The notes under the pieces: generated by a model
What the model was told of the DNA's origin: nothing
Seen by the model: only the letters and a program-made list of their open reading frames with translations
Database searches by the model: none
Position numbers and translations under genes: made by a program
Assembly (NCBI GenBank): GCA_038060895.1
Contig: JBBTCT010000022.1
Coordinates: 224,001 to 288,000 of the forward strand
DNA length: 64,000 bases
Reading direction: 5' to 3'
Source: Planctomycetota bacterium
GTDB taxonomy: Bacteria > Planctomycetota > MHYJ01 > WSZJ01
Part shown: piece by piece, positions 35,504 through 54,687 of the stretch
Layout: every line of letters begins with the position of its first letter
How positions within the stretch are numbered: position 1 is the first letter of the stretch

Positions 35504-36025
35504 ATGGACGCAACGAAACCGGAAGTCGCCGCTCCAGCACCGCCCGCGCCGCTGGCCGACCCGCGCGTGGACAAGCTCCTTGAAAAGATCGGGATCCTTG
35601 AGCAGCTTTTCGTGAAGCGCATCAAGGACGACCAGGCGCACGCGGCGGCGTACAACACGCTGTACCAGGACATGTCGAAGTACCGGGACGACGCGTTCCG
35701 GGGGGCGCAGAAGTCGCTTCTCAAGGGTCTAGTGCTCATTTACGACACGATGAAGCGGTCCATTTCGGGGATCGGGGACGGGACGGTGCGCGAGATGGTG
35801 AACCTGCACGTCGAGGAACTGCTCGAGCTGCTTCATCGCCACGACGTCGAGCGGATGCCGGACACGCTGGGAAAATTCGACCGGAACGTGCAGCAGGCGC
35901 TGGGGACGGAGCCGGCGGCGACGGCGGAAGAAGATCAGACTGTTGCGCGAGTGGTGCGTGACGGGTTCAAATGGGGGACTCAGGTGTTGAGGCCGCAGGA
36001 AGTAGTGATTAAGGTAAAAAAGTAG
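35504..36025 (+). CDS. grpE: GrpE-like nucleotide exchange factor
   Basis: Coiled coil; KFDRNVQQAL, VARVVRDGF..VLRPQEV. Confidence 0.85.
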   Translation: MDATKPEVAAPAPPAPLADPRVDKLLEKIGILEQLFVKRIKDDQAHAAAYNTLYQDMSKYRDDAFRGAQKSLLKGLVLIYDTMKRSISGIGDGTVREMVNLHVEELLELLHRHDVERMPDTLGKFDRNVQQALGTEPAATAEEDQTVARVVRDGFKWGTQVLRPQEVVIKVKK

Positions 36026-36088
36026 TAGGGAGCAGGGGGTAGTGGGTAGTTGGTAGGAAAGGCAAAGACTCTTAACAGGAGACCGTCC

Positions 36089-37678
36089 ATGGCCGACCAG
36101 AAGACGCCGATGACGTGCGGGATTGACCTGGGCACGACGAACAGCGCCATCGCGTTCATCGACGAGCACGGCAAGGCGCAGGTGATCCAGAACACGGACA
36201 ACGAGCGGATCACGCCCTCGGTCGTGCTGTTCGAGGAGAAGGAAGTCATCGTCGGCAAGATCGCCAAGAACTCGGCGGTGGCAGCGCCGGACCGGGTAGT
36301 GCAGTTCGTGAAGCGGCACATCGGCGAAGAGGGCTGGGTGAAGACGTACTTCGGGACGGAGTACACGCCCGAGACGATCAGCGCGCTGATCCTGAAGCGC
36401 ATCGTGCAGGACGCCGAGAAGGTGAGCGGCGGCAAAGTTGGGAGCGTGGTGATCACGGTTCCGGCGTACTTCAACGAAGTCGAGCGCAAGGCGACGCAGG
36501 ACGCGGGGACGATCGCGGGCCTGAACGTCGTCTCCATCCTCAATGAGCCGACGGCCGCGGCGCTGGCTTACGGGCTGGACCGGCTGGGCGAGAAGAAGCG
36601 CGTCCTGGTCTACGACCTGGGCGGCGGGACGTTCGACGTGACGATCATCGAGATCGACGGCACGAAGATCGACGTGCTGGCGACGGACGGCGAGCGGCGG
36701 CTGGGCGGCATCGACTGGGACGACGAGATCATCAACATGGTCTCCGAGAAGTTCCAGGCGGAGCACGGGATCGACCCGCGCAACGACCTCGAAGCGTGCC
36801 AGGACCTGCGCAACAAGGCGGAAGACGCGAAGATCAGCCTGTCGAAGCTCGAAAAGGTGCGCATCCTCTGCCAGTGCCAGGGCAAGACGACCAAGGTCGA
36901 ACTGACGCGCGAAGATTTCGAGAAGATCACCAAGGGCCTGCTCGACCAGACCGAGACGTACCTCGGGGTCGTGCTCCAGAAGGCGAAGCTCGCCTGGAAG
37001 GACATCGGCACCGTCCTGCTCGTCGGCGGCATGACCCGCATGCCCGCCGTGCAGGGCATGATCCAGCGTGTCACGGGTCTTAAACCCGAAACCGGCATCA
37101 ACCCCGACGAATGCGTCGCGATGGGCGCCGCCTACTACAACGCCGTCCTCGCCCTCCAGGCCAAGCCGTCCGAGGAGCCCGAGCTGGCGCTTCAGGGCGA
37201 AGCGCTGAAGGAGTCGATCGACGAGGAAGTCATGATCCTGCTGCAGGGCGTCGAGGTCACGAACGTGAACTCGCACTCGCTGGGCATCGTGGGCATCCAC
37301 AAGAAGACCGGCAAGCTGGTCGCGTACAAGATGATCCCGAAGAACACGCCGATCCCGGCCGACATCACAAAGCCGTTCGGGACGGAGAAGGAAAACCAGG
37401 TCAGCGTGCAGATCAAGATCGTCGAGGGCGAAGGCGAGACCCCCGAGGATTGCACGGAGATCGGGATGTGCGAGATCAAGGACCTCCCGAAGGGCCACCC
37501 CGCGGGCTCGATCATCGACGTGACCTACTCGTACAGCGTCGACGGCCGACTGCAAGTCACAGGCAAGGACCGCCTGTCCGGCAAGGAGGCCAGGGTCGAG
37601 ATCGTCCGCGCGAGCGGTATGGATGACAAAGAGATCAAGGAGGCGAAGAAGGACGTGGTTGAGATGGAAGTAGGCTAA
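36089..37678 (+). CDS. Hsp70 family protein (short, lid-less DnaK paralog)
   Basis: GIDLGTTNS, TVPAYF, NEPTAAALAYG, YDLGGGTFD, VGGMTRMP. Confidence 0.95.
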   Translation: MADQKTPMTCGIDLGTTNSAIAFIDEHGKAQVIQNTDNERITPSVVLFEEKEVIVGKIAKNSAVAAPDRVVQFVKRHIGEEGWVKTYFGTEYTPETISALILKRIVQDAEKVSGGKVGSVVITVPAYFNEVERKATQDAGTIAGLNVVSILNEPTAAALAYGLDRLGEKKRVLVYDLGGGTFDVTIIEIDGTKIDVLATDGERRLGGIDWDDEIINMVSEKFQAEHGIDPRNDLEACQDLRNKAEDAKISLSKLEKVRILCQCQGKTTKVELTREDFEKITKGLLDQTETYLGVVLQKAKLAWKDIGTVLLVGGMTRMPAVQGMIQRVTGLKPETGINPDECVAMGAAYYNAVLALQAKPSEEPELALQGEALKESIDEEVMILLQGVEVTNVNSHSLGIVGIHKKTGKLVAYKMIPKNTPIPADITKPFGTEKENQVSVQIKIVEGEGETPEDCTEIGMCEIKDLPKGHPAGSIIDVTYSYSVDGRLQVTGKDRLSGKEARVEIVRASGMDDKEIKEAKKDVVEMEVG

Positions 37679-37683
37679 GGACA

Positions 37684-37846
37684 GGCTGGCATAGGCTGGC
37701 GGAGGCTGCGGAGGCTGGCGGAGGCTTTGGCGCAAAGGGAGGCAACCCCCTATGAGTAAGCGCCGACGCAATCGCCAGCCCCGATTCAGCCGACGCCTTT
37801 AGCCTTCGCCAGCCTCCGCCAGCCTCTGCCAGCCTCCGCCAGCCTC
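37684..37846. repeat. Inverted arrays of a 10-bp repeat (GCCAGCCTCC / GGAGGCTGGC)
   Basis: GGCTGGCGGAGGCTG tandem at about 37684-37730 and the complement at about 37801-37846; same unit at about 22118-22162. Confidence 0.7.
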
Positions 37847-37856
37847 TTCACTACCC

Positions 37857-39071
37857 ATGCCTGAAAACCGCTTCCACGAACTTCTGGGCCTCCCAGAAGA
37901 GGTCTCCGACCCGGACTATTACCAGCTCCTGGGCGTGCCACGCTCCGAGAATGACGCCGCCGCAATCGAGGCGTGCTTCAAGGAGAAGATGACGCATGTC
38001 CAGCACATCGAGAACCCGCGCCACAAGGAGTTTCTCGAGTTTCTCAAGGGGGAGCTGAAGCGCGCCCGGTCGATCCTGACCGACGAAGAGCGGCGCGGCG
38101 AGTACGACCGCGAGCTGGCGGAGGAGCGCGGCGACGAGCTTCGGAAGGTGCTGTCGCACATGCTCGTGGACGGGACGCTGAGCTCGATCGCCGAGGTGTC
38201 GGTCTTCCGCGAGGGTCACAATCTCGGGCTGAGCGGCGAGTTCGTGAAGCAGGTCGTGGACGAGGAGTTGAAGAAGGCGGGGGCGCGCCGCGTCTCGGTC
38301 GCGACGGGGACCAACGGGCACCAGACGCAGGTCCTCATGAACCAGAAGGCGCAGGAAGTCGCGCGCCAGATGCAGGAAGCCCGCATGGCGGCGCGCATCG
38401 CCGACACGCGCGCGAAGATCGCGGAGACGCACCAGAAGAAGGCCGAGGAGCAGGTGCAGGTCGTGCTGCAGAAGGCCCGCGTGGCCGAGGTCCAGAAGAA
38501 GCAGGCCGTCGAACTGGCGCAGGAAACCCGCGAACGCGCGCGGCAGGCCGAGATCCACAAGATGCGCGCCGAACAGAAGGTCCAGGCCGTCACGCAGAAG
38601 GCCCGCGAAGCCGAGACGCTCGCGCGCAAGGCGATTACCCGTGAGCACCTCGCCGCCGCCCGCCACAAGATGTCCGAACAGGAACGCAAGCAGCTCGAAG
38701 CCGGCATGAAGGAGGCGGAGACCCGCTTCCAGGCCTACGTCGAAGCCTCCAACGAAGAACTTGAGTCGGTCCGTGAGAAAGGCATGGCAGGGCGGCGCCT
38801 CACGATGTGCTACGCCCTCCTCAGCATGTCGCTCGTCGCCGGCGCCGCGCTGCCTAAATACGTGCCGGGCGCCGCTTCCGCCATCACGAAACTGCTCGAA
38901 CCCTATGTCTCCAGGGTCAGCGGCATTCCGCACGCGGCCCTGCCGCTCATCGCCATCGCAATCCTGCTCCCGACGCTTCATTGGCTGGCAGGGACGCGGG
39001 CCACCGGGTTCTTCGCGCCGCTGCTGGTTATCCTCGCGCTGGCCGTCGCGGCGGGCGTGCTGCGGGGATAG
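37857..39071 (+). CDS. J-domain-like (no HPD) coiled-coil membrane protein
   Basis: PDYYQLLGV..ARSILTDEERRGEYD J-like ends; long coiled coil; C-terminal TMs. Confidence 0.75.
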   Translation: MPENRFHELLGLPEEVSDPDYYQLLGVPRSENDAAAIEACFKEKMTHVQHIENPRHKEFLEFLKGELKRARSILTDEERRGEYDRELAEERGDELRKVLSHMLVDGTLSSIAEVSVFREGHNLGLSGEFVKQVVDEELKKAGARRVSVATGTNGHQTQVLMNQKAQEVARQMQEARMAARIADTRAKIAETHQKKAEEQVQVVLQKARVAEVQKKQAVELAQETRERARQAEIHKMRAEQKVQAVTQKAREAETLARKAITREHLAAARHKMSEQERKQLEAGMKEAETRFQAYVEASNEELESVREKGMAGRRLTMCYALLSMSLVAGAALPKYVPGAASAITKLLEPYVSRVSGIPHAALPLIAIAILLPTLHWLAGTRATGFFAPLLVILALAVAAGVLRG

Positions 39072-47261: not shown

Positions 47262-48085
47262 CGCCCGAGCCTCTCGGAAGCATCCCACTCTTCTTCATTT
47301 TCCAGACCTGTCCTGTAGTCCGGATTCTCGACGAAGTGGCCGAGGTCCTGGTCCCAGAAGAACACCTTCCGGCAGGGGAACTCGGAAACCGGATCCCGGC
47401 GGATGATGCCTTCCTCACCTTCAATTGTGTCACCGTCGTCTTCTCCCTTGTCGACGACGGTTCCCGTGAGATCGAGGTCGTCGTACCCGTCGAGGTCGAT
47501 GTCGCGATAGCAGGGAGACAGCAGGCCCCCCTTGTAGGTGTACCGGTCGTCATGGTCGTCCACGGCGCGCGTCTCGAGGAGCAGCACCAGCTTCCGGCCG
47601 CGCAACTCGTACAGGTACAAGCCTCCGTTGCCCATGTGCGTCTGGCCGAAAACCTCGAACACCGGATTGGGGATTCCGTGCAGCGCCAGGGCCCGCATCT
47701 CCCGGACCGATTGCTCCCCGGGCTGGTTTTCGCACTCCGCCTGCCAGACAATGGCATCCTCCTCAACCCCGTACACCGTCATGAATCCCCACCACTGGCC
47801 TTCGTAGTCGCAAATGGCGCCGAGCAGATCGGGGTGCCCGGCGACCGGGACTGAAGTGATCGCGCGGAGTTCGGCCGACTCGTGTTTCAGGTTCCATGCG
47901 GCGATCGCGGCGTTGAAGCGGCCTGAATCGTCTCCCTCAGGGTCCTCCAGGCGGGGAGAGATTCCGGCCTCATCGGCGGATTTGCGCGACGAGAGCCGCC
48001 GGCATCCGGCGAGCAGAAGAGCGATCGCGACTGAGATCGTAAGGACTCTGATGGGGCACCTCGGGCTGTGAGCGACGCGCGGCAC
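47258..48085 (-). CDS. Putative lipoprotein
   Basis: LLLAGC lipobox; DIDLDGYDDL Ca-binding-like loop. Start uncertain. Confidence 0.65.
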   Translation of the reverse strand: MPRVAHSPRCPIRVLTISVAIALLLAGCRRLSSRKSADEAGISPRLEDPEGDDSGRFNAAIAAWNLKHESAELRAITSVPVAGHPDLLGAICDYEGQWWGFMTVYGVEEDAIVWQAECENQPGEQSVREMRALALHGIPNPVFEVFGQTHMGNGGLYLYELRGRKLVLLLETRAVDDHDDRYTYKGGLLSPCYRDIDLDGYDDLDLTGTVVDKGEDDGDTIEGEEGIIRRDPVSEFPCRKVFFWDQDLGHFVENPDYRTGLENEEEWDASERLGR

Positions 48086-48117
48086 TGCTATCGGCGCGCC
48101 GCCGACCCGGGCCGCAC

Positions 48118-48585
48118 TTACTCTTTACCGCCGCAGCACTTCTTGTACTTCTTGCCGCTCCCGCAAGGGCACGGATCGTTGCGGCCGAGAGGCGCGCCCG
48201 CATTCTTGAAAGGCGTTCCCTCGGGTTTCGCCTGCTTTTCGAACGCCGCGGTGAGCGCGCCGGCGTAGGTGGCGAGCTGGCGGCCGCCGTAGAGGCGACC
48301 CTCGGATTCCAGGAATTCGAGGAAGGCGCCGACGAGGTGGGGGACGGAGGCGCGCGCTTCGGGTGGAAGGGCAAGCCGGGCGAGGCCGGTGAGGAGGCCG
48401 TTTCTGACGGAGAGTTCGTCGAGATCGCCGGGAGAAACGGAGGCGCACGCCGTTTCCATGAAGGCCATGAGGAGCGGGGCGGCGTCCAGATCGGGGCGTG
48501 CGCGGAAGGGGCGGAAGGGAGTGGACTCGAGGAAGTCAGCGATCCAGGCTTCGACGCTGTCGCGTTCGAACGTTTCCATGGGCAA
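48118..48585 (-). CDS. SEC-C motif-containing protein
   Basis: [18 protein letters not shown] at the C-terminus. Confidence 0.9.
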
Positions 48586-48873
48586 AGCATCGTACGCGCG
48601 GGGCTGCTGTCGCGCGAGTGGCAGGGGGAATAGTCGCCGGAACGCTCAGCCGAGATCGTATAAAATAAGTACTCTGCGCTGCTTAATGATATGCGTGGCT
48701 GGAGTCTGACGCACAGCGAATTTCAACGGGATTATGCACTTGACAAACTTAAAATCCATGAACGAAACTCGTACAGGCATCATGGTTTGCGTCGATTATG
48801 GCCCCGCGATTAAACGAATAAGAAAATCGCCAGAGTCCCGTTTCAGGACGCGATTTTGGCCCGCGACGAGGAT

Positions 48874-49002
48874 TCAGGACTTACGGCGAGGTTTCCCGGC
48901 CTTCTTAGCCCGCTTCAGGGGGGGTGTAGCGAGGGCCTTCCGGATCATGGCGTCGAAGTCCACGCGGGTCACTTCTCGGTGGCTCTCTGGCTTGGGTTTC
49001 AT
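48874..49002 (-). CDS. 42-aa basic peptide (IS cargo)
   Basis: AAGGAG RBS; MKPKPESHREVTRVDFDAMIRKALATPPLKRAKKAGKPRRKS. Confidence 0.6.
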   Translation of the reverse strand: MKPKPESHREVTRVDFDAMIRKALATPPLKRAKKAGKPRRKS

Positions 49003-49049
49003 CTATCTATCTCCTTGGGGGTTATCAGGCTGATTCCCCTAGAAAGTAT

Positions 49050-49078
49050 TTGACAGCGTCTGCGGCGCAGCTTAGGAT
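49050..49078 (+). promoter_or_regulatory. Sigma70 promoter for the cargo gene and tRNAs
   Basis: TTGACA-17 bp-TAGGAT; ATG 7 nt downstream (leaderless). Confidence 0.7.
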
Positions 49079-49085
49079 TTCCCAG

Positions 49086-49475
49086 ATGCGAAGGAACAAC
49101 AAGATCGTGAGCCTTGGAGAGGAAATCGCGGCGAAGCGCCGGGAGCTGGCGGCGCTTGAGGCCGAACTTGACATCGAAGTCAGGCGGTATAGCGGTGGTC
49201 ATGCGAAGGCTCCACAAGCGGTGGTGACACCGCCTAGACCTGCGGACCCTGAAGAGGTCCTTCTGAGTGATGCCATCATCGCTGGCAAGGTGGTGCCTCT
49301 CTTGGACAGGGAGCCGGATCGGGTGTTCACCGTGGATGATATCACAAGATTGACCGGAGTGCCGCGCCACCTTCTGGTGATGTCTATCGGGCGCATGGTG
49401 CGCTGGCACAAGGTCCACAAAGTGGAAGCTGGCAAGTACAAGGCATCCACGGTTAAGAAAGCGATGGAGGGATAA
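49086..49475 (+). CDS. Coiled-coil plus winged-helix-like small protein (IS cargo)
   Basis: EIAAKRRELAALEAEL coiled coil; FTVDDITRLTGV..SIGRMVR..KVHKVEAGKY wHTH-like. Confidence 0.7.
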   Translation: MRRNNKIVSLGEEIAAKRRELAALEAELDIEVRRYSGGHAKAPQAVVTPPRPADPEEVLLSDAIIAGKVVPLLDREPDRVFTVDDITRLTGVPRHLLVMSIGRMVRWHKVHKVEAGKYKASTVKKAMEG

Positions 49476-49504
49476 AGAAAAACCCTCGGTCGTTGGCCGA
49501 GGGT
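49473..49504 (-). terminator. Rho-independent terminator (minus strand)
   Basis: ACCCTCGG/CCGAGGGT stem followed on the minus strand by a TTTTCTTT tract. Confidence 0.65.
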
Positions 49505-49515
49505 GTACGTCGGTT

Positions 49516-49607
49516 GGAGAGGTGTCCGAGTGGCTTATGGTGCTGGTTTCCAAAACCAGTGAACGGTGGTGACACACCGTCCGAGGGTTCGACTCCCTCC
49601 CTCTCCG
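49516..49607 (+). tRNA. Class II tRNA with Ser-type body and CCA (Trp) anticodon
   Basis: Acceptor GGAGAGG/CCTCTCC, G73; anticodon arm CTGGT-TTCCAAA-ACCAG; long variable arm ACGGTG/CACCGT; T arm GAGGG-TTCGACT-CCCTC; no encoded CCA tail. Confidence 0.88.
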
Positions 49608-49625
49608 TTTTGCTGTTCTGAGGCT

Positions 49626-49720
49626 GGCCGGGTGGCGGAACTGGTTTACGCGCCCGACTTGGAATCGGGTGGTTGTCTCTTGACGGGGGCACCATGCGGG
49701 TTCGAATCCCGTCCCGGTCA
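49626..49720 (+). tRNA. Class II tRNA with Leu-type body and TGG (Pro) anticodon
   Basis: Acceptor GGCCGGG/CCCGGTC, A73; D arm GCG-GAACTGGTTTA-CGC; anticodon arm CCCGA-CTTGGAA-TCGGG; long variable arm; T arm GCGGG-TTCGAAT-CCCGT. Confidence 0.88.
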
Positions 49721-49780
49721 GTCTCATTTTTGAAAGATCGAAGCGCCTTTGCGAAGTGCTTGAGGCTGGCGCGTGTCAAA

Positions 49781-49809
49781 AGAATACAACAAGACTGGGT
49801 GCGTGTCAA
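49781..49809 (-). promoter_or_regulatory. Candidate sigma70 promoter antisense to the tRNA pair
   Basis: Minus strand TTGACA(49809-49804)-17 bp-TATTCT(49786-49781); GCGTGTCAA repeated at 49771 and 49801. Confidence 0.6.
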
Positions 49810-49841
49810 CTTGCGAAATTGACGCACCGCGCCAACTCTGA

Positions 49842-50795
49842 CTAGCGCTTCACATCCCGCTTTGGCGCTTCCAGAGTGAGGCGTTTTCCTTCGGTGCGCT
49901 GGATCGCGTCGAGCATCTTCGCCCCGTCTGACTTCTTCCGGTTGTTGAACGTCCAGAGGTAGGAATCGAGGTACTTCGGAAGGTAGTCATGCCCAACGCC
50001 GTGGAAGATGCCCACGATGGAAGTCTTGAAGTTGGCGAAGAGGCCCTCAACGCCGTTCGTCGTGACGTCCCCACGGGCGTACTCTTCGATGGAGTGGTTG
50101 ACGGTTTCATGCTTCACCATCATCCGCCCTGGCGTGACGTACAGCTTGGATTCGTCTGAGTGAAGCACCGTCCGCTTGGGATCAACGTTCTTCATTACGA
50201 AGCGGCGGATGTCCCGCGCGTTGGCCTTGGGCGCTGGCTTGACGACGGCACGCGCGGACCCTCCACGCTGAACCAGCGCCAGCACGGTTGACTTCTTCAC
50301 GGCCTTGCCACGGCGCGATCCGCGCCCCTTGTGGCCGAAGTAGGTTTCGTCCGCTTCGATGATCCCGGCGAGTGGTGACTTGTCGGAGTTCTGGAGAGCG
50401 TGGCGCACCCGATGGCAGAGAAACCACGCGGTGCGATAACTGCCGAGTTCAAGGTGCCGCTGGATTGCCAGCGCCGAGATTCCTGTCTTGCTGGACGAAA
50501 TGAGGTAGAAGGCCAGCAGCCACTTGTTGAGCGGGATGTGGCTGTCCTCGAAGATCGTGCCAACGGTGCAAGTGAACTGCTTCCGGCACGCCACGCAGAA
50601 CAGCAGCCCCTTGCGAATCTTCTTCTCCGCGTCTGGCTTGAGCCGGGCGACCTTCTCGCGTTCGGTGCAGCCACAGTGCGGGCAAACGGGGCCAGAGGGC
50701 CAGCGCACCGCTTCGATGTAGTTACGCGCGGCGTCCTCGTCTGGGAAGAGAGAGAAGATGTTCGTCAGGCTCACGGCATCGGGCGTCGGGATCAT
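49842..50795 (-). CDS. IS1595-family (ISXO2-like) transposase
   Basis: RWP...CPHCG..CVACRKQFT..GTIF Zn ribbon; SYRTAW HTH; EADETY, HSDE, VNHS..EY, TNGVEG catalytic motifs. Confidence 0.95.
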   Translation of the reverse strand: MIPTPDAVSLTNIFSLFPDEDAARNYIEAVRWPSGPVCPHCGCTEREKVARLKPDAEKKIRKGLLFCVACRKQFTCTVGTIFEDSHIPLNKWLLAFYLISSSKTGISALAIQRHLELGSYRTAWFLCHRVRHALQNSDKSPLAGIIEADETYFGHKGRGSRRGKAVKKSTVLALVQRGGSARAVVKPAPKANARDIRRFVMKNVDPKRTVLHSDESKLYVTPGRMMVKHETVNHSIEEYARGDVTTNGVEGLFANFKTSIVGIFHGVGHDYLPKYLDSYLWTFNNRKKSDGAKMLDAIQRTEGKRLTLEAPKRDVKR

Positions 50796-50820: not shown

Positions 50821-50849
50821 AAGATACTAGATCATGCTTGTTTTGTCAA
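50821..50849 (-). promoter_or_regulatory. Transposase promoter with -35 inside the IR
   Basis: Minus strand TTGACA-17 bp-TATCTT, then AAAGGAG RBS. Confidence 0.7.
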
Positions 50850-50923
50850 GTGCATAATCCCGATTTCAAGCTTAACATTATGATATTAAATAAGTTATGA
50901 CACATTGTCTGCAACGGTTCATT

Positions 50924-51561: not shown

Positions 51562-51653
51562 GTCCGGTCTCCTCTCTGCCGAACGGGCCGCGCGATCCCC
51601 ACGGATCCGCGGCCCGTCGCGTTTCCGGCATTCTTCGGGGACAATGCCCCGGA

Positions 51654-52013
51654 ATGGACCAGCTGAACACCGTGCGCGTTCACCTCCTCGAACTTCATCG
51701 CCTCCTCCTCGCCGTCGAGCGCGAGGACTACGAACGCGTCCACGGCCGCGTGACGGGCGCCACCTTCCTGAACGTGCTGACCTCCGACCCGGCGTTCGCA
51801 TGGCTGCGGCCCCTCACGTCGCTGATCCTCACGCTGGACGAGATGCTGGAAGCGGAACTCACCGAGGCCGACCGGGTGGACGGCATCACGCGCATCCGCG
51901 CTTTCCTGGCCCCCGACGAAAACGGGAACGAGTTCCAGAGGAGGTACGCCGACGCGCTTCAGCAGAGCCCGCACGTTCTACTCGCGCACGGGGTGGTGAT
52001 GAAGGCGCTGTAG
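51654..52013 (+). CDS. Conserved-looking hypothetical protein
   Basis: LHRLLL..ER..YER.HG..L..DP.FAWLRPL..LI..LDE. Confidence 0.75.
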   Translation: MDQLNTVRVHLLELHRLLLAVEREDYERVHGRVTGATFLNVLTSDPAFAWLRPLTSLILTLDEMLEAELTEADRVDGITRIRAFLAPDENGNEFQRRYADALQQSPHVLLAHGVVMKAL

Positions 52014-52111
52014 ACCGCCGCCGGGCGCTCCCCCGGCTCACTGTAATAGACAATAAAACCATTATGTCTATTCTGGGCATTATGGTAATTTCCGTCCAGG
52101 AGGTTTCACCC

Positions 52112-52462
52112 ATGACGACAAGTTCCCTGCCGACGCCGACGGGCGAATCCGTTCCCATGACCAGCTTCCCGGCCTCTGCGCTCAAGAACTCCGCTGCGGA
52201 TGTCCTGGAGATGGTCCTGACCTCCGGCGCCGTTGTCATCACCCGACACGGCAAGGAGAAGGCCGTGATCCTGTCCGTCGAAGCCTACCGGCGACTCGTG
52301 GCTTCCCGCCGCGACGACCTGGACGTTCTACGCGCAAAATTCGGCGGGCTGCTAGCCAGAATGCAGACTCCCGCTGCGCGAAAGGGCGCACGGGCCGCCT
52401 TCGACGCTTCGCCGGATGAAATGGGCAAAGCAGCCGTAAAGGCGGCGCGCCGCCGTGGCTGA
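52112..52462 (+). CDS. Phd/YefM family antitoxin
   Basis: AGGAGG RBS; ASALKN..VVITRHGKEKAVILSVEAY; AT-rich IR at about 52045-52070 upstream. Confidence 0.85.
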   Translation: MTTSSLPTPTGESVPMTSFPASALKNSAADVLEMVLTSGAVVITRHGKEKAVILSVEAYRRLVASRRDDLDVLRAKFGGLLARMQTPAARKGARAAFDASPDEMGKAAVKAARRRG

Positions 52463-53102
52463 CCGCCGCGCCGTCATCACCGTGCTCGCCGGCACGAATG
52501 GCGCCGGCAAGAGCAGCATTGCAGGAGCCACGATTCGTTCGCGCCAGGCGGACTACTACAACCCTGACGAAGCGGCGCGCGCTCACAAGGAAGCGCATCC
52601 GGAGGCGACTGCCGAAGAAGCGAACGCCGCTGCGTGGGAATTCGGCCGCCGCATGCTCGAAGAGGCCGCTCGTGAGCGGAAGAACTTCGCCTTTGAAACG
52701 ACACTGGGCGGCAACACGATCATGTTTCTTCTTGAGAATGCAGCGAATTCCGGTTTGGACGTGCGGATCTGGTACACCGGACTTGCTTCAGTCGAGTTGC
52801 ACCTCAAACGCGTCCGGCAACGGGTCCGCCTGGGAGGTCACGACATTCCCGAGGAAATGATCCGGCGCCGCTATGAGAACGGGCCCCGGAACCTGATCCG
52901 CCTCATGCCGAAGCTCGCCTCGCTGCGCGTCTACGACAACAGTGCCGCAGGGGATCCCGCCGCGGGAGTGGCTCCGAAACCAGTTCTTGTTCTGCAGATG
53001 GAAAAGGGCCGAATTGCCGGGCCGAAGGATCTGTCCCGGACTTCCGAATGGGCGAAATCGATCGTCGCGCGGGCCATGGAACTTCACTCGGCGCCCAGGT
53101 AG
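52455..53102 (+). CDS. Zeta-toxin-like P-loop kinase
   Basis: [37 protein letters not shown]. Confidence 0.88.
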
Positions 53103-53163
53103 CGACCCCGCTCGGATCGGCATTGTGCTATCCTCCCGCCCCCTCATTTCCGGAACCACCTTG

Positions 53164-54687
53164 ATGCGTTTCGCAGACCTGCACCTGATCGAGCCTCTTC
53201 TCCGCGCCGTGCACGACGAAGGCTATGTCACGCCCACCCCCATCCAGGAAATGTCGATCCCGCACGTGCTGGAAGGGAAGGACCTGCTCGGCTGCGCCCA
53301 GACCGGCACCGGCAAGACGGCGGCCTTCGCACTTCCGATCCTCCAGCGCCTCCACGCCCAGCCCATCCCGAACCCGCGATACGTGCGCGTGCTGGTGCTC
53401 GCGCCCACGCGCGAGCTGGCGACCCAGATCGGCGATTCGTTCCGGACCTACGGGAAACACCTCGGCTTCCGGCACGTCACCATCTACGGCGGCGTCGGCC
53501 AGAACCCGCAGGCACAGGCGCTTCACCGCGGCGTCGACATCGTCGTCGCCACCCCCGGCCGGCTGCTCGACCTGATGCAGCAGGGGTATGCGAAGCTGAA
53601 CCGGGTGGAAGTGCTGGTGCTCGACGAAGCGGACCGGATGCTGGACATGGGGTTCATCCACGACGTGAAGCGGATCATCGCGGCGATCCCGAAGAAGCGG
53701 CAGACGCTTTTTTACAGCGCGACGCTGCCGCGCGAGATCCAGTCGCTGGCGCACGACATCCTGTCGAGCCCGGTTCGCGTCGAGGTCACGCCCGCGGCGA
53801 CGACGGTCGAGAAAATCGCACAGTCGGTGTGCTTCGTGGACAAGGGAAACAAGTTCACGGTCCTTCAGGGGCTTCTGCGCGACACGAAAATTCAGCGCGC
53901 CCTCATTTTCACGCGCACGAAGCACGGCGCGAACAAGCTCGCCAAGCAGCTCAACCAGGTCGGCGTCCGATCCGACGCCATCCATGGGAACAAGGCGCAG
54001 ACGGCGCGCGAGCGCGCGCTGGCGGACTTCGGGCGAGGCAAGATCCGGGTCCTGGTCGCCACCGACATCGCCGCGCGCGGGATCGACGTCGAGGGCATCA
54101 CGCACGTCTTCAACTACGACCTCCCCAACGTCCCCGACAGCTACGTGCACCGCATCGGGCGCACCGCGCGAGCGGGGGCTTCCGGCGAAGCGATTTCATT
54201 CTGCTCCCCCGAGGAGCGCGGCGAGCTGTCCGACATCGAGCGGCTGATCCGGATGACGCTTCCGACGCGGCCGGGACAGCCGGAACGGCCCGCGGCGGGG
54301 CGGCCGGGCGGCCAATCGGCCGGGCGGGCAGGCGGGCGCAGCTTCGGCTCCTCAGGGCAGATGGGCGGCTCCTCGAATCGCTTCAATCGCCCGGGACAGG
54401 GACATGGAGGCCACGCGCACCGCTCGCAGGGCGCGAAGCCGGCCGGTCACGGCCACTCCGGGTCCCACGGCCACCACACTTCCGGCGGTCACGCCGCTTC
54501 CCACGTCCAGGCAGCCTCCCACGGCTCAACTCCCGCGCACCCGGCTCCGCACTCCCACGCCGCGCCTCACTCGCACGGAGCTCCGCGATCCGCCGGCGGT
54601 TCGCATCAGCACGGCGGCGCGCCGGCTCACGGCCAGGGCCGCTTCGCGGGAAAACTCCGGGGACGGCATCCCCGGAAGGGGCGTTAG
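53164..54687 (+). CDS. rhlE: DEAD-box RNA helicase (RhlE-like) with Gly/His-rich tail
   Basis: [43 protein letters not shown]. Confidence 0.93.

Follow-up and report, generated by a model that had tools for sequence, protein, structure and literature searches.

The window analysed here is a stretch of 64 kb of a Planctomycetota contig. ARAGORN finds only two tRNA genes in it, and the two are adjacent. The first, tRNA1 (49516..49607, plus strand), is a class II gene with a Ser-type body, the anticodon CCA at 49550-49552 and the discriminator G73, an assignment based on ARAGORN, Rfam, comparison with the host tRNAs and independent contigs. ARAGORN names it tRNA-Trp (CCA) and places it at 49515-49608, and at 49516-49607 it scores 48.8 bits against the Rfam tRNA family RF00005, above the family gathering cut-off of 29. 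The acceptor strands (GGAGAGG...CCTCTCC) provide the pairs G1-C72, G2-C71 and A3-U70, the long variable arm has a 6-bp stem and the anticodon loop reads UU-CCA-AA. The Ser-type hallmarks and the Trp anticodon described in an earlier reading made from the sequence only (hereafter the sequence-only reading) are thus borne out by the sequence, by ARAGORN and by Rfam. Both programs agree on an intact 7/5 cloverleaf with seven acceptor pairs and five T-stem pairs. All four stems, U33, A37-A38, G18-G19 and the T loop are intact, and the sole flaw is a U10:U25 mismatch in the D stem.

To place tRNA1 among the tRNAs of its host we ran ARAGORN on the whole genome (G000, 5.4 Mb in 47 contigs, 86.5% complete). 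The acceptor stem and T arm of the host tRNA-Ser(GGA) gene (G000:C10:56411-56501) are base-for-base the same as those of tRNA1, whereas the D arm, the anticodon stem (with compensated changes) and the variable arm differ, giving 77% identity overall. The long variable arm, G73 and host-like acceptor stem are those of a bacterial tRNA-Ser, but the anticodon is not a Ser anticodon. Conversely, the anticodon CCA together with G73 fits tRNA-Trp, but a body of 92 nt with G1-C72 does not fit a class I tRNA with a short variable loop and, in this host, A1-U72. The host tRNA-Trp(CCA) is normal, being 76 nt long and starting with A1-U72, in line with the earlier remark that tRNA-Trp normally has a short variable arm. 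tRNA1 is a real, intact class II tRNA gene on the tRNA-Ser(GGA) scaffold of the host genus with the Trp anticodon CCA. The exact match of its acceptor stem and T arm to the tRNA-Ser of the genus suggests, at the level of sequence, that it arose or was remodelled in this lineage. A Ser-type CCA tRNA was seen nowhere else, neither in 40 relatives nor at any of the other IS1595 or tRNA(UGG) loci examined, and because it is found in one lineage only tRNA1 has no covariation support of its own.

The second gene, tRNA2 (49626..49720, plus strand), starts 18 bases downstream of tRNA1 and was overlooked in the sequence-only reading. It is a class II tRNA with a Leu-type D arm (UGGCGGAA...ACGC), A73, a 7-bp variable stem, the anticodon UGG and A37, as judged from ARAGORN, Rfam and homologues in other genomes. 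ARAGORN names it tRNA-Pro (UGG) at 49625-49721, and Rfam gives RF00005 a score of 55.5 bits (cut-off 29) with a 7-bp acceptor stem and a 5-bp T stem. Its D arm and A73 are those of the host tRNA-Leu genes, but its anticodon is that of Pro and not of Leu. It has a G2-U71 pair and A37 where tRNA-Pro has G37, and it lacks the C1-G72 pair of the host tRNA-Pro genes. Judging from sequence comparison, no host tRNA-Leu gave rise to tRNA2 by recent mutation.

Both tRNAs lie inside a 2,136-bp insertion sequence of the IS1595 family, which was likewise overlooked before. The left terminal inverted repeat (48727..48747, plus strand) is 21 nt long, has the core TTTGTCAAGTGCATAAT and perfectly matches the right one (50842..50862, listed on the plus strand). 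Outside the repeats the sequence ATTTCAA is read on the left (48720..48726) and on the right (50863..50869) as a 7-nt target-site duplication. IS1595 elements usually duplicate 8 bp of target, and in the window 7 nt are exact. Perfect 21-nt repeats, ATTTCAA on both flanks and an IS1595 transposase identify the unit as a transposed element, and the DDE transposase, terminal inverted repeats and target-site duplication are those expected of the family. Within the host genome the core occurs only at the two ends of this element. The G+C content is 0.597 at 48001-50000 compared with 0.661 for the window. The transposase gene (49842..50795, minus strand) encodes 317 residues with an N-terminal zinc ribbon and matches Pfam PF12762 (2.3e-29) and PF12760 (5e-12) and NCBIfam NF033547 (194 bits, cut-off 75). 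The transposase alignment draws attention to a CCA codon seven codons before its stop (49863..49865, minus strand). On the minus strand the right inverted repeat holds a TTGACA -35 match, which is a candidate for the transposase promoter.

Upstream of the tRNAs the list of open reading frames and their translations contains a possible ORF of 141 aa (49050..49475, plus strand), in which we recognize by eye an N-terminal coiled coil and a C-terminal winged-helix-like part and which matches no Pfam or NCBIfam family. A candidate match to a sigma-70-like promoter spans 49050-49078 (plus strand). By eye, the architecture of the 141-aa ORF resembles that of small ORFs that precede the tRNA at other loci, but hhalign does not support homology between them (probability 0.2%). 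Between this ORF and tRNA1, a hairpin followed by a T-run on the minus strand (49482..49504) is terminator-like for transcripts coming from the transposase, and a congener of the host (G004) has an A-run and a hairpin at the matching position. Given the convergent layout and the T-run of the hairpin on the minus strand, transposase transcripts would run antisense through both tRNAs. The host genome has a second IS1595 element (C9:99057-100566, locus L176), whose transposase is 48% identical to that of the window; the inverted repeats of this second element enclose a class I tRNA(UGG) of 73 nt with G1-C72 and A73. Elsewhere in the window a GrpE, Hsp70 and DnaJ-domain cluster (35504-39071) sits in a stretch of lower G+C (about 28-54 kb), which may be part of a larger island.

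The sequence-only reading had advised a check for errors at 49550-49552. We compared four of the 11 listed sequencing runs (X1, X3, X5 and X9) with the window. A contig of run X3, from another study, covers 49525-49730 with 0 differences, and this run also crosses the left end of the element (48700-48898) with 0 differences. A contig of run X5, from a second other study, covers 49446-49641, again with 0 differences, and run X1, which is possibly the source run, agrees with the tRNA1 sequence, which is thus identical in three data sets. The contigs without differences from the two independent studies indicate that the CCA anticodon is not an assembly error. In run X9, a soil metatranscriptome, a contig of 239 nt covers 49615-49730, and with it tRNA2, with 1 difference, and is unrelated to the window upstream of tRNA2, where it has no tRNA1. 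A near-identical tRNA2 thus occurs in different surroundings, where tRNA1 is missing, and its presence in an RNA library is weak evidence that tRNA2 is transcribed, as the cover may be DNA carry-over.

The host has normal sets of tRNA-Ser and tRNA-Leu and normal tRNA-Pro genes with C1-G72, including Pro(UGG). Its synthetases comprise one SerRS, one LeuRS-type match, TrpRS and TyrRS and five class IIa enzymes, and no extra or dedicated synthetase was found in this 86.5% complete genome. Other long "odd" tRNAs called by ARAGORN (on C5, C32, C33 and C46, at C22:398993 and at C1:472898) lack T-loop motifs and were set aside as likely false calls in GC-rich coding DNA. A plausible tRNA-Sec (UCA, 93 nt) is found at G000:C4:13533-13625, and a second tRNA-Sec call, on C1, looks spurious. 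On the contig of the window, 25-42 kb before the window start (G000:C22:182028-199316), there is an array of about 35 tRNAs for most amino acids, among them class-I-like tRNAs of 73-75 nt with the Leu anticodons GAG, CAA and CAG, whose bodies resemble the 73-nt tRNA(UGG) on C9.

A homologous pair is found in the congener G004, where a 95-nt Leu-type tRNA(UGG) comes after a Leu-type tRNA(UUA); among the genes near the UUA tRNA we found no convincing interrupted gene that would call for TAA read-through. The first position of the cassette varies, with UUA in G004 and a 74-nt tRNA(CGA) in L081. A pattern scan of one genome per species returned 86 stretches, 80 of which were examined. At 16 of these 80 loci a Leu-type tRNA(UGG) of 84-99 nt lies at the match, and the other 64 have no tRNA there. 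The 16 loci come from Terriglobia and other Acidobacteriota, Planctomycetota, Gemmatimonadota, Armatimonadota, Binatota and one proteobacterium. A stricter pattern gave three metagenome loci with tRNA(UGG) genes of 101-102 nt that ARAGORN misses and Rfam scores at 53-56 bits. Across 17 tRNA(UGG) sequences 98.8% of cells pair and both-sided changes occur at 14 of 20 pairs, including all five anticodon-stem pairs, figures that are biased to structure because the set was partly chosen with a pattern that fixes the anticodon loop and with tRNA finders. In BLAST searches of five acidobacterial genomes (four Terriglobia-type, one Bryobacteraceae) the only full-length matches of tRNA(UGG) genes were other tRNA(UGG) genes, and the partial matches checked (two loci in two Terriglobia-type genomes) were both tRNA-Leu(UAA). 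From this match pattern the tRNA(UGG) genes are not fresh point mutants of tRNA-Leu(UAG).

Pfam analysis of 87 flank ORFs placed an IS1595 transposase, or part of one, next to the tRNA at 11 of 18 tRNA(UGG) loci. The core TTTGTCAAGTGCATAAT also bounds the Bryobacteraceae copy L034 (1600-1616 and 3783-3799), with the tRNA inside, and three copies are present on that chromosome. Altogether the tRNA lies inside inverted repeats at L034, L176, L157, L184 and L186. To sample the elements blind to the anticodon we used a transposase protein as a query against 400 genomes per phylum for Planctomycetota and Acidobacteriota and examined the best loci. Four of the 29 Planctomycetota loci have a non-canonical tRNA, which is UGG at L154, L157 and L176 and UGC on a Leu-type body at L156, and three more have ordinary Pro(GGG), Trp and Lys tRNAs nearby. 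The Acidobacteriota sample comprised 28 loci (one locus of an unpublished genome was excluded). Here L184 has UGG on a Ser-type G73 body with the same anticodon arm as tRNA2 of the window, the Leu-type bodies of L186, where the variable arm is very long, and of L185 carry UGG and UUA, respectively, and three loci have ordinary Asp, Ala and Met tRNAs. In all, the anticodon-blind sampling yielded seven non-canonical tRNAs (five UGG, one UUA and one UGC) on bodies of several kinds. UGG tRNAs on Leu-type, Ser-type or odd class I bodies thus recur as cargo of this IS1595 subgroup in at least five phyla.

Several tRNA(UGG) loci have further features. At all six Terriglobia-type loci L019, L021, L067, L072, L089 and L122 (from MAGs labelled Terriglobia, Acidobacteriota or Acidobacteria) the Leu-type tRNA(UGG) is divergent to a gene with an NYN domain, a predicted RNase fold. 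In the genome of L067 tRNA positions 8-43 recur, inverted and 3' of the NYN gene, as a partial copy with the CTTGGAA loop (L120:2289-2325), and partial BLAST matches point to such a copy at the corresponding place in two more genomes. Conserved hairpins and tiny ORFs are found 5' of the very long metagenome tRNA(UGG) genes (L105:640-740, L107:1130-1227 and, on the minus strand, L106:596-700), the ORFs reading ATG AGG AGG TAG in L105 and L107 and ATG CTC AGG AGG TGA in L106. A lone IS1595-type repeat core with one mismatch to that of the window lies 215 nt downstream of an Armatimonadota tRNA(UGG) (L041:2293-2309); the locus has no transposase, and the core looks like an element remnant. A crude scan of L185 gave a possible second, degenerate tRNA-like sequence of 70 nt (1362-1431) between the tRNA(UUA) and the transposase end.

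We then aligned the transposases of 11 tRNA-bearing and 16 non-bearing elements, with further tails added later. The C-terminal motif GKRL.Y ends in Y, or in L in the window, and three residues past this position bearing elements have Pro encoded as CCA. This is the case in 9 of the 15 UGG-bearing elements (the window, L176, L154, L019, L034, L106, L122, L087 and L186, with L019 and L122 being near-duplicates); in L081 and L040 the CCA is shifted one or two codons later, and in the remaining four (L157, L080, L032 and L184) it is absent from the tail. None of the 22 evaluable non-bearing transposases has CCA at this site, their codons being for Leu (including those of the close relatives L187, CTT, and L190, CTG), Val, Ile, Gln, Ser or Thr, or the Pro codons CCG and CCT. 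CCA is also found at the site in L185, which has the UUA tRNA, and in L183, where the locus ends 300 nt past the gene. From the per-gene share of CCA among Pro codons, the chance that the first seven would all be CCA is about 7e-5, for a column chosen post hoc and with independence assumed. In a quick tree of the transposases the bearing CCA rows are scattered, and in three places they stand beside non-bearing rows with other codons (L186 by L181, L019 and L122 by L193, the window and L176 by L182 and L188). A crude scan of the non-bearing sisters found no tRNA-like T arm and acceptor; L181 and L193 still have a cargo-sized space inside their repeats. The recurrent tRNA(UGG) thus appears, from these alignments, to be tied to the transposase of its own element through a fixed CCA codon in the tail.

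Six of the 15 Pro codons of the window transposase are CCA, and a second of these falls in a column that is hydrophobic in 88% of the other sequences. In the bearing transposases CCA is found more often than the other Pro codons at columns that are Leu or hydrophobic (fL 0.11 vs 0.03), and non-bearing transposases show no such difference. The signal of this tally comes mostly from one column, and Pro at hydrophobic columns is also seen in the controls, so that the tally weakly favours a reading of CCA as Leu. For a corresponding reading of UGG as Ser in the window transposase we saw no sign, as each of its four Trp codons aligns with a Trp, aromatic or hydrophobic column.

SerRS and LeuRS do not read the anticodon according to established identity rules, and for this reason a Ser-tRNA(CCA) reading UGG and a Leu-tRNA(UGG) reading CCN would be the most likely chemistry. 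The explanation that we prefer, and to which we give about an even chance, is that tRNA1 and tRNA2 are missense suppressors borne by an insertion sequence, resembling allo-tRNAs in function and not in structure. The two form a cassette carried as cargo by the 2.1-kb IS1595-family element. The 3' UTR of the transposase would be antisense to both tRNAs, given the convergent layout and the minus-strand terminator beyond them, and this would couple tRNA and transposase levels. From sequence we infer that the tRNAs would be expressed, charged and used in decoding in this organism, and that the element or the host may benefit. Cross-charging is countered by G73 in tRNA-Ser and by C2-G71 in tRNA-Leu (PMC9976931). 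The amino acid to be inserted is not of one conserved kind across the cargo, since the scaffolds differ and are Leu-type, Ser-type (L184) or class I (L176). The sequence-only reading had offered Ser insertion at UGG codons or a class II tRNA-Trp, which is a fair statement of the two translational options but leaves out tRNA2 and the IS1595 context.

If charging instead follows the anticodons, tRNA1 is a class II tRNA-Trp and tRNA2 a class II tRNA-Pro, and both are extra isoacceptors, for instance for the CCA codons, rare in a host of 66% G+C, of the element genes. We consider this unlikely. Family-I ProRS relies mainly on the anticodon, of which it reads mainly G35 and G36. The ProRS of this genome is of family I (TIGR00408) and tRNA2 has G35, G36 and A73, which could let the enzyme charge it, and nothing would then be mistranslated. 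The UGG anticodon is moreover retained over differing scaffolds, and the CCA share of the Pro codons in the window transposase fits such a demand. However, most of these scaffolds are of the Ser and Leu types, whose synthetases are blind to the anticodon, and this is odd for honest isoacceptors; tRNA2 has neither the C1-G72 of the host tRNA-Pro nor G37, and tRNA1 does not have the A1-U72 of the host tRNA-Trp. For tRNA1, the anticodon CCA and G73 are listed as major determinants of bacterial TrpRS (PMC9976931), as the sequence-only reading had held, and could let TrpRS charge it. The host nevertheless has canonical Trp and Pro(UGG) tRNAs already, and related elements carry the stop-reading anticodon UUA and the anticodon UGC on Leu-type bodies.

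Alternatively the tRNAs may act as RNAs and not as adaptors, being antisense to the transposase 3' UTR, serving as processing signals or forming a loop-loop pair, which we regard as improbable. The loops of tRNA1 (UUCCAAA) and tRNA2 (CUUGGAA) share six complementary bases and the two anticodons are exact complements, but this complementarity is full in the window only, is weak in G004 (UUA with UGG) and is absent between the CGA and UGG anticodons of the L081 pair. The convergent orientation and the terminator-like hairpin beyond the tRNAs would suit a role of this kind, yet some tRNAs (L034, L106 and L184) are co-directional with the transposase. The partial inverted copy after the NYN-domain gene in Terriglobia also speaks for it, as does the finding that allo-tRNA-like genes can be charged yet not used in translation (Mukai et al., PMC5389517). 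Against it, compensatory changes preserve the whole cloverleaf, with its canonical T loop and its acceptor stem, a pattern that points to products processed and charged as tRNAs. It is likewise improbable that tRNA1 is a passenger without function, derived from a host tRNA-Ser that was trapped in the element, is decaying or recombinant and has drifted in its anticodon. Its restriction to one lineage, its U10:U25 mismatch, its Rfam score, the lower of the two, and the soil RNA contig with tRNA2 and no tRNA1 upstream favour this view; against it stand otherwise intact stems and conserved loop positions, an exact match to the host tRNA-Ser acceptor stem and T arm, compensated changes in the anticodon stem and an identical sequence in three data sets.

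The preferred explanation, that of transposon-borne missense suppressors, has its closest parallel in the allo-tRNAs. These are defined by a 12-bp acceptor branch split 8/4 or 9/3 and occur in soil bacteria near transposon-related and toxin-antitoxin genes, sometimes in polycistrons of irregular tRNAs, and some of them put Ser at Leu codons in E. coli (Mukai et al. 2017, PMC5389517). Like tRNA1 they are class II tRNAs that combine SerRS features with a non-Ser anticodon, whereas both tRNAs of the window have the canonical 7/5 split, so that the likeness to allo-tRNAs drawn in the sequence-only reading applies to function and not to structure (PMC5389517). Just past the element, at 51644-54687, the window encodes a Phd/YefM antitoxin-like ORF, a zeta-toxin-like kinase ORF and a DEAD-box helicase, neighbours that echo the surroundings of allo-tRNAs. 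The portions of PMC5389517 available to us, supplementary figures aside, mention neither a Leu-type tRNA(UGG) nor a Ser-type tRNA(CCA) with a canonical scaffold, nor any tRNA carried within IS1595 repeats. The tRNA-ProX of Streptomyces and Kitasatospora are another natural bacterial case of body and anticodon in disagreement, and they mistranslate when expressed in E. coli (PMC11415595). Their bodies are class I Pro bodies in which A33 and A34 accompany an Ala, Asn or Thr anticodon, and a synthetase paralogue, ProRSx, is dedicated to them (PMC11415595). In this they differ from the window tRNAs, which are Ser- and Leu-type, keep U33 and have no extra synthetase that we could find in the 86.5% complete genome.

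Among eukaryotes, nematode nev-tRNAs and the tRNA-Ser(CAG) of CTG-clade yeasts are class II tRNAs that are charged by the anticodon-blind LeuRS or SerRS and bear the anticodon of another amino acid; unlike the window tRNAs they are chromosomal and are not carried by transposons. Mistranslating tRNA-Ser(UGG) with a Ser scaffold and a UGG anticodon have reportedly been engineered in yeast as laboratory constructs, a design that the natural L184 tRNA matches. Some IS1595 subgroups carry passenger genes, and the window element resembles the family in its zinc-ribbon DDE transposase, its terminal inverted repeats and its short target duplication. In the literature outside subscription journals we found no report of tRNA cargo in IS1595 elements. 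Nor did that literature, leaving aside the supplementary figures of PMC5389517, contain a natural bacterial Leu-type tRNA(UGG) or Ser-type tRNA(CCA).

The data also allow a bolder reading, not proven, in which the transposase has a private codon. The IS1595 subgroup would run a code of its own, with the tail CCA read by the element's tRNA(UGG) as Leu (or as Ser on a Ser-type scaffold) instead of Pro, and the function or dosage of the transposase would then depend on the cargo tRNA. In the window the tRNA1 loop UUCCAAA would mimic the context of a CCA codon and, by pairing loop to loop with tRNA2 over 6 bp, titrate it, so that an RNA would hold back a toxic suppressor. We think it rather unlikely that this full scheme holds. 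To our knowledge no mobile element has been known to couple its own gene to its own suppressor tRNA, and a transposase CCA codon matched to the cargo would be the first case.

A mismatch between body and anticodon is, as far as we know, rare among natural tRNAs. The mismatched tRNAs described here are canonical cloverleaves built on the two scaffolds whose synthetases disregard the anticodon, and they lie inside simple insertion sequences of several phyla. In genome annotation such genes will be mislabelled as tRNA-Trp and tRNA-Pro, and for synthetic biology they represent natural suppressor scaffolds of canonical shape. Provided that charging follows the tRNA bodies, misreading of the Trp-to-Ser and Pro-to-Leu kinds can pass between bacteria by way of a transposon.
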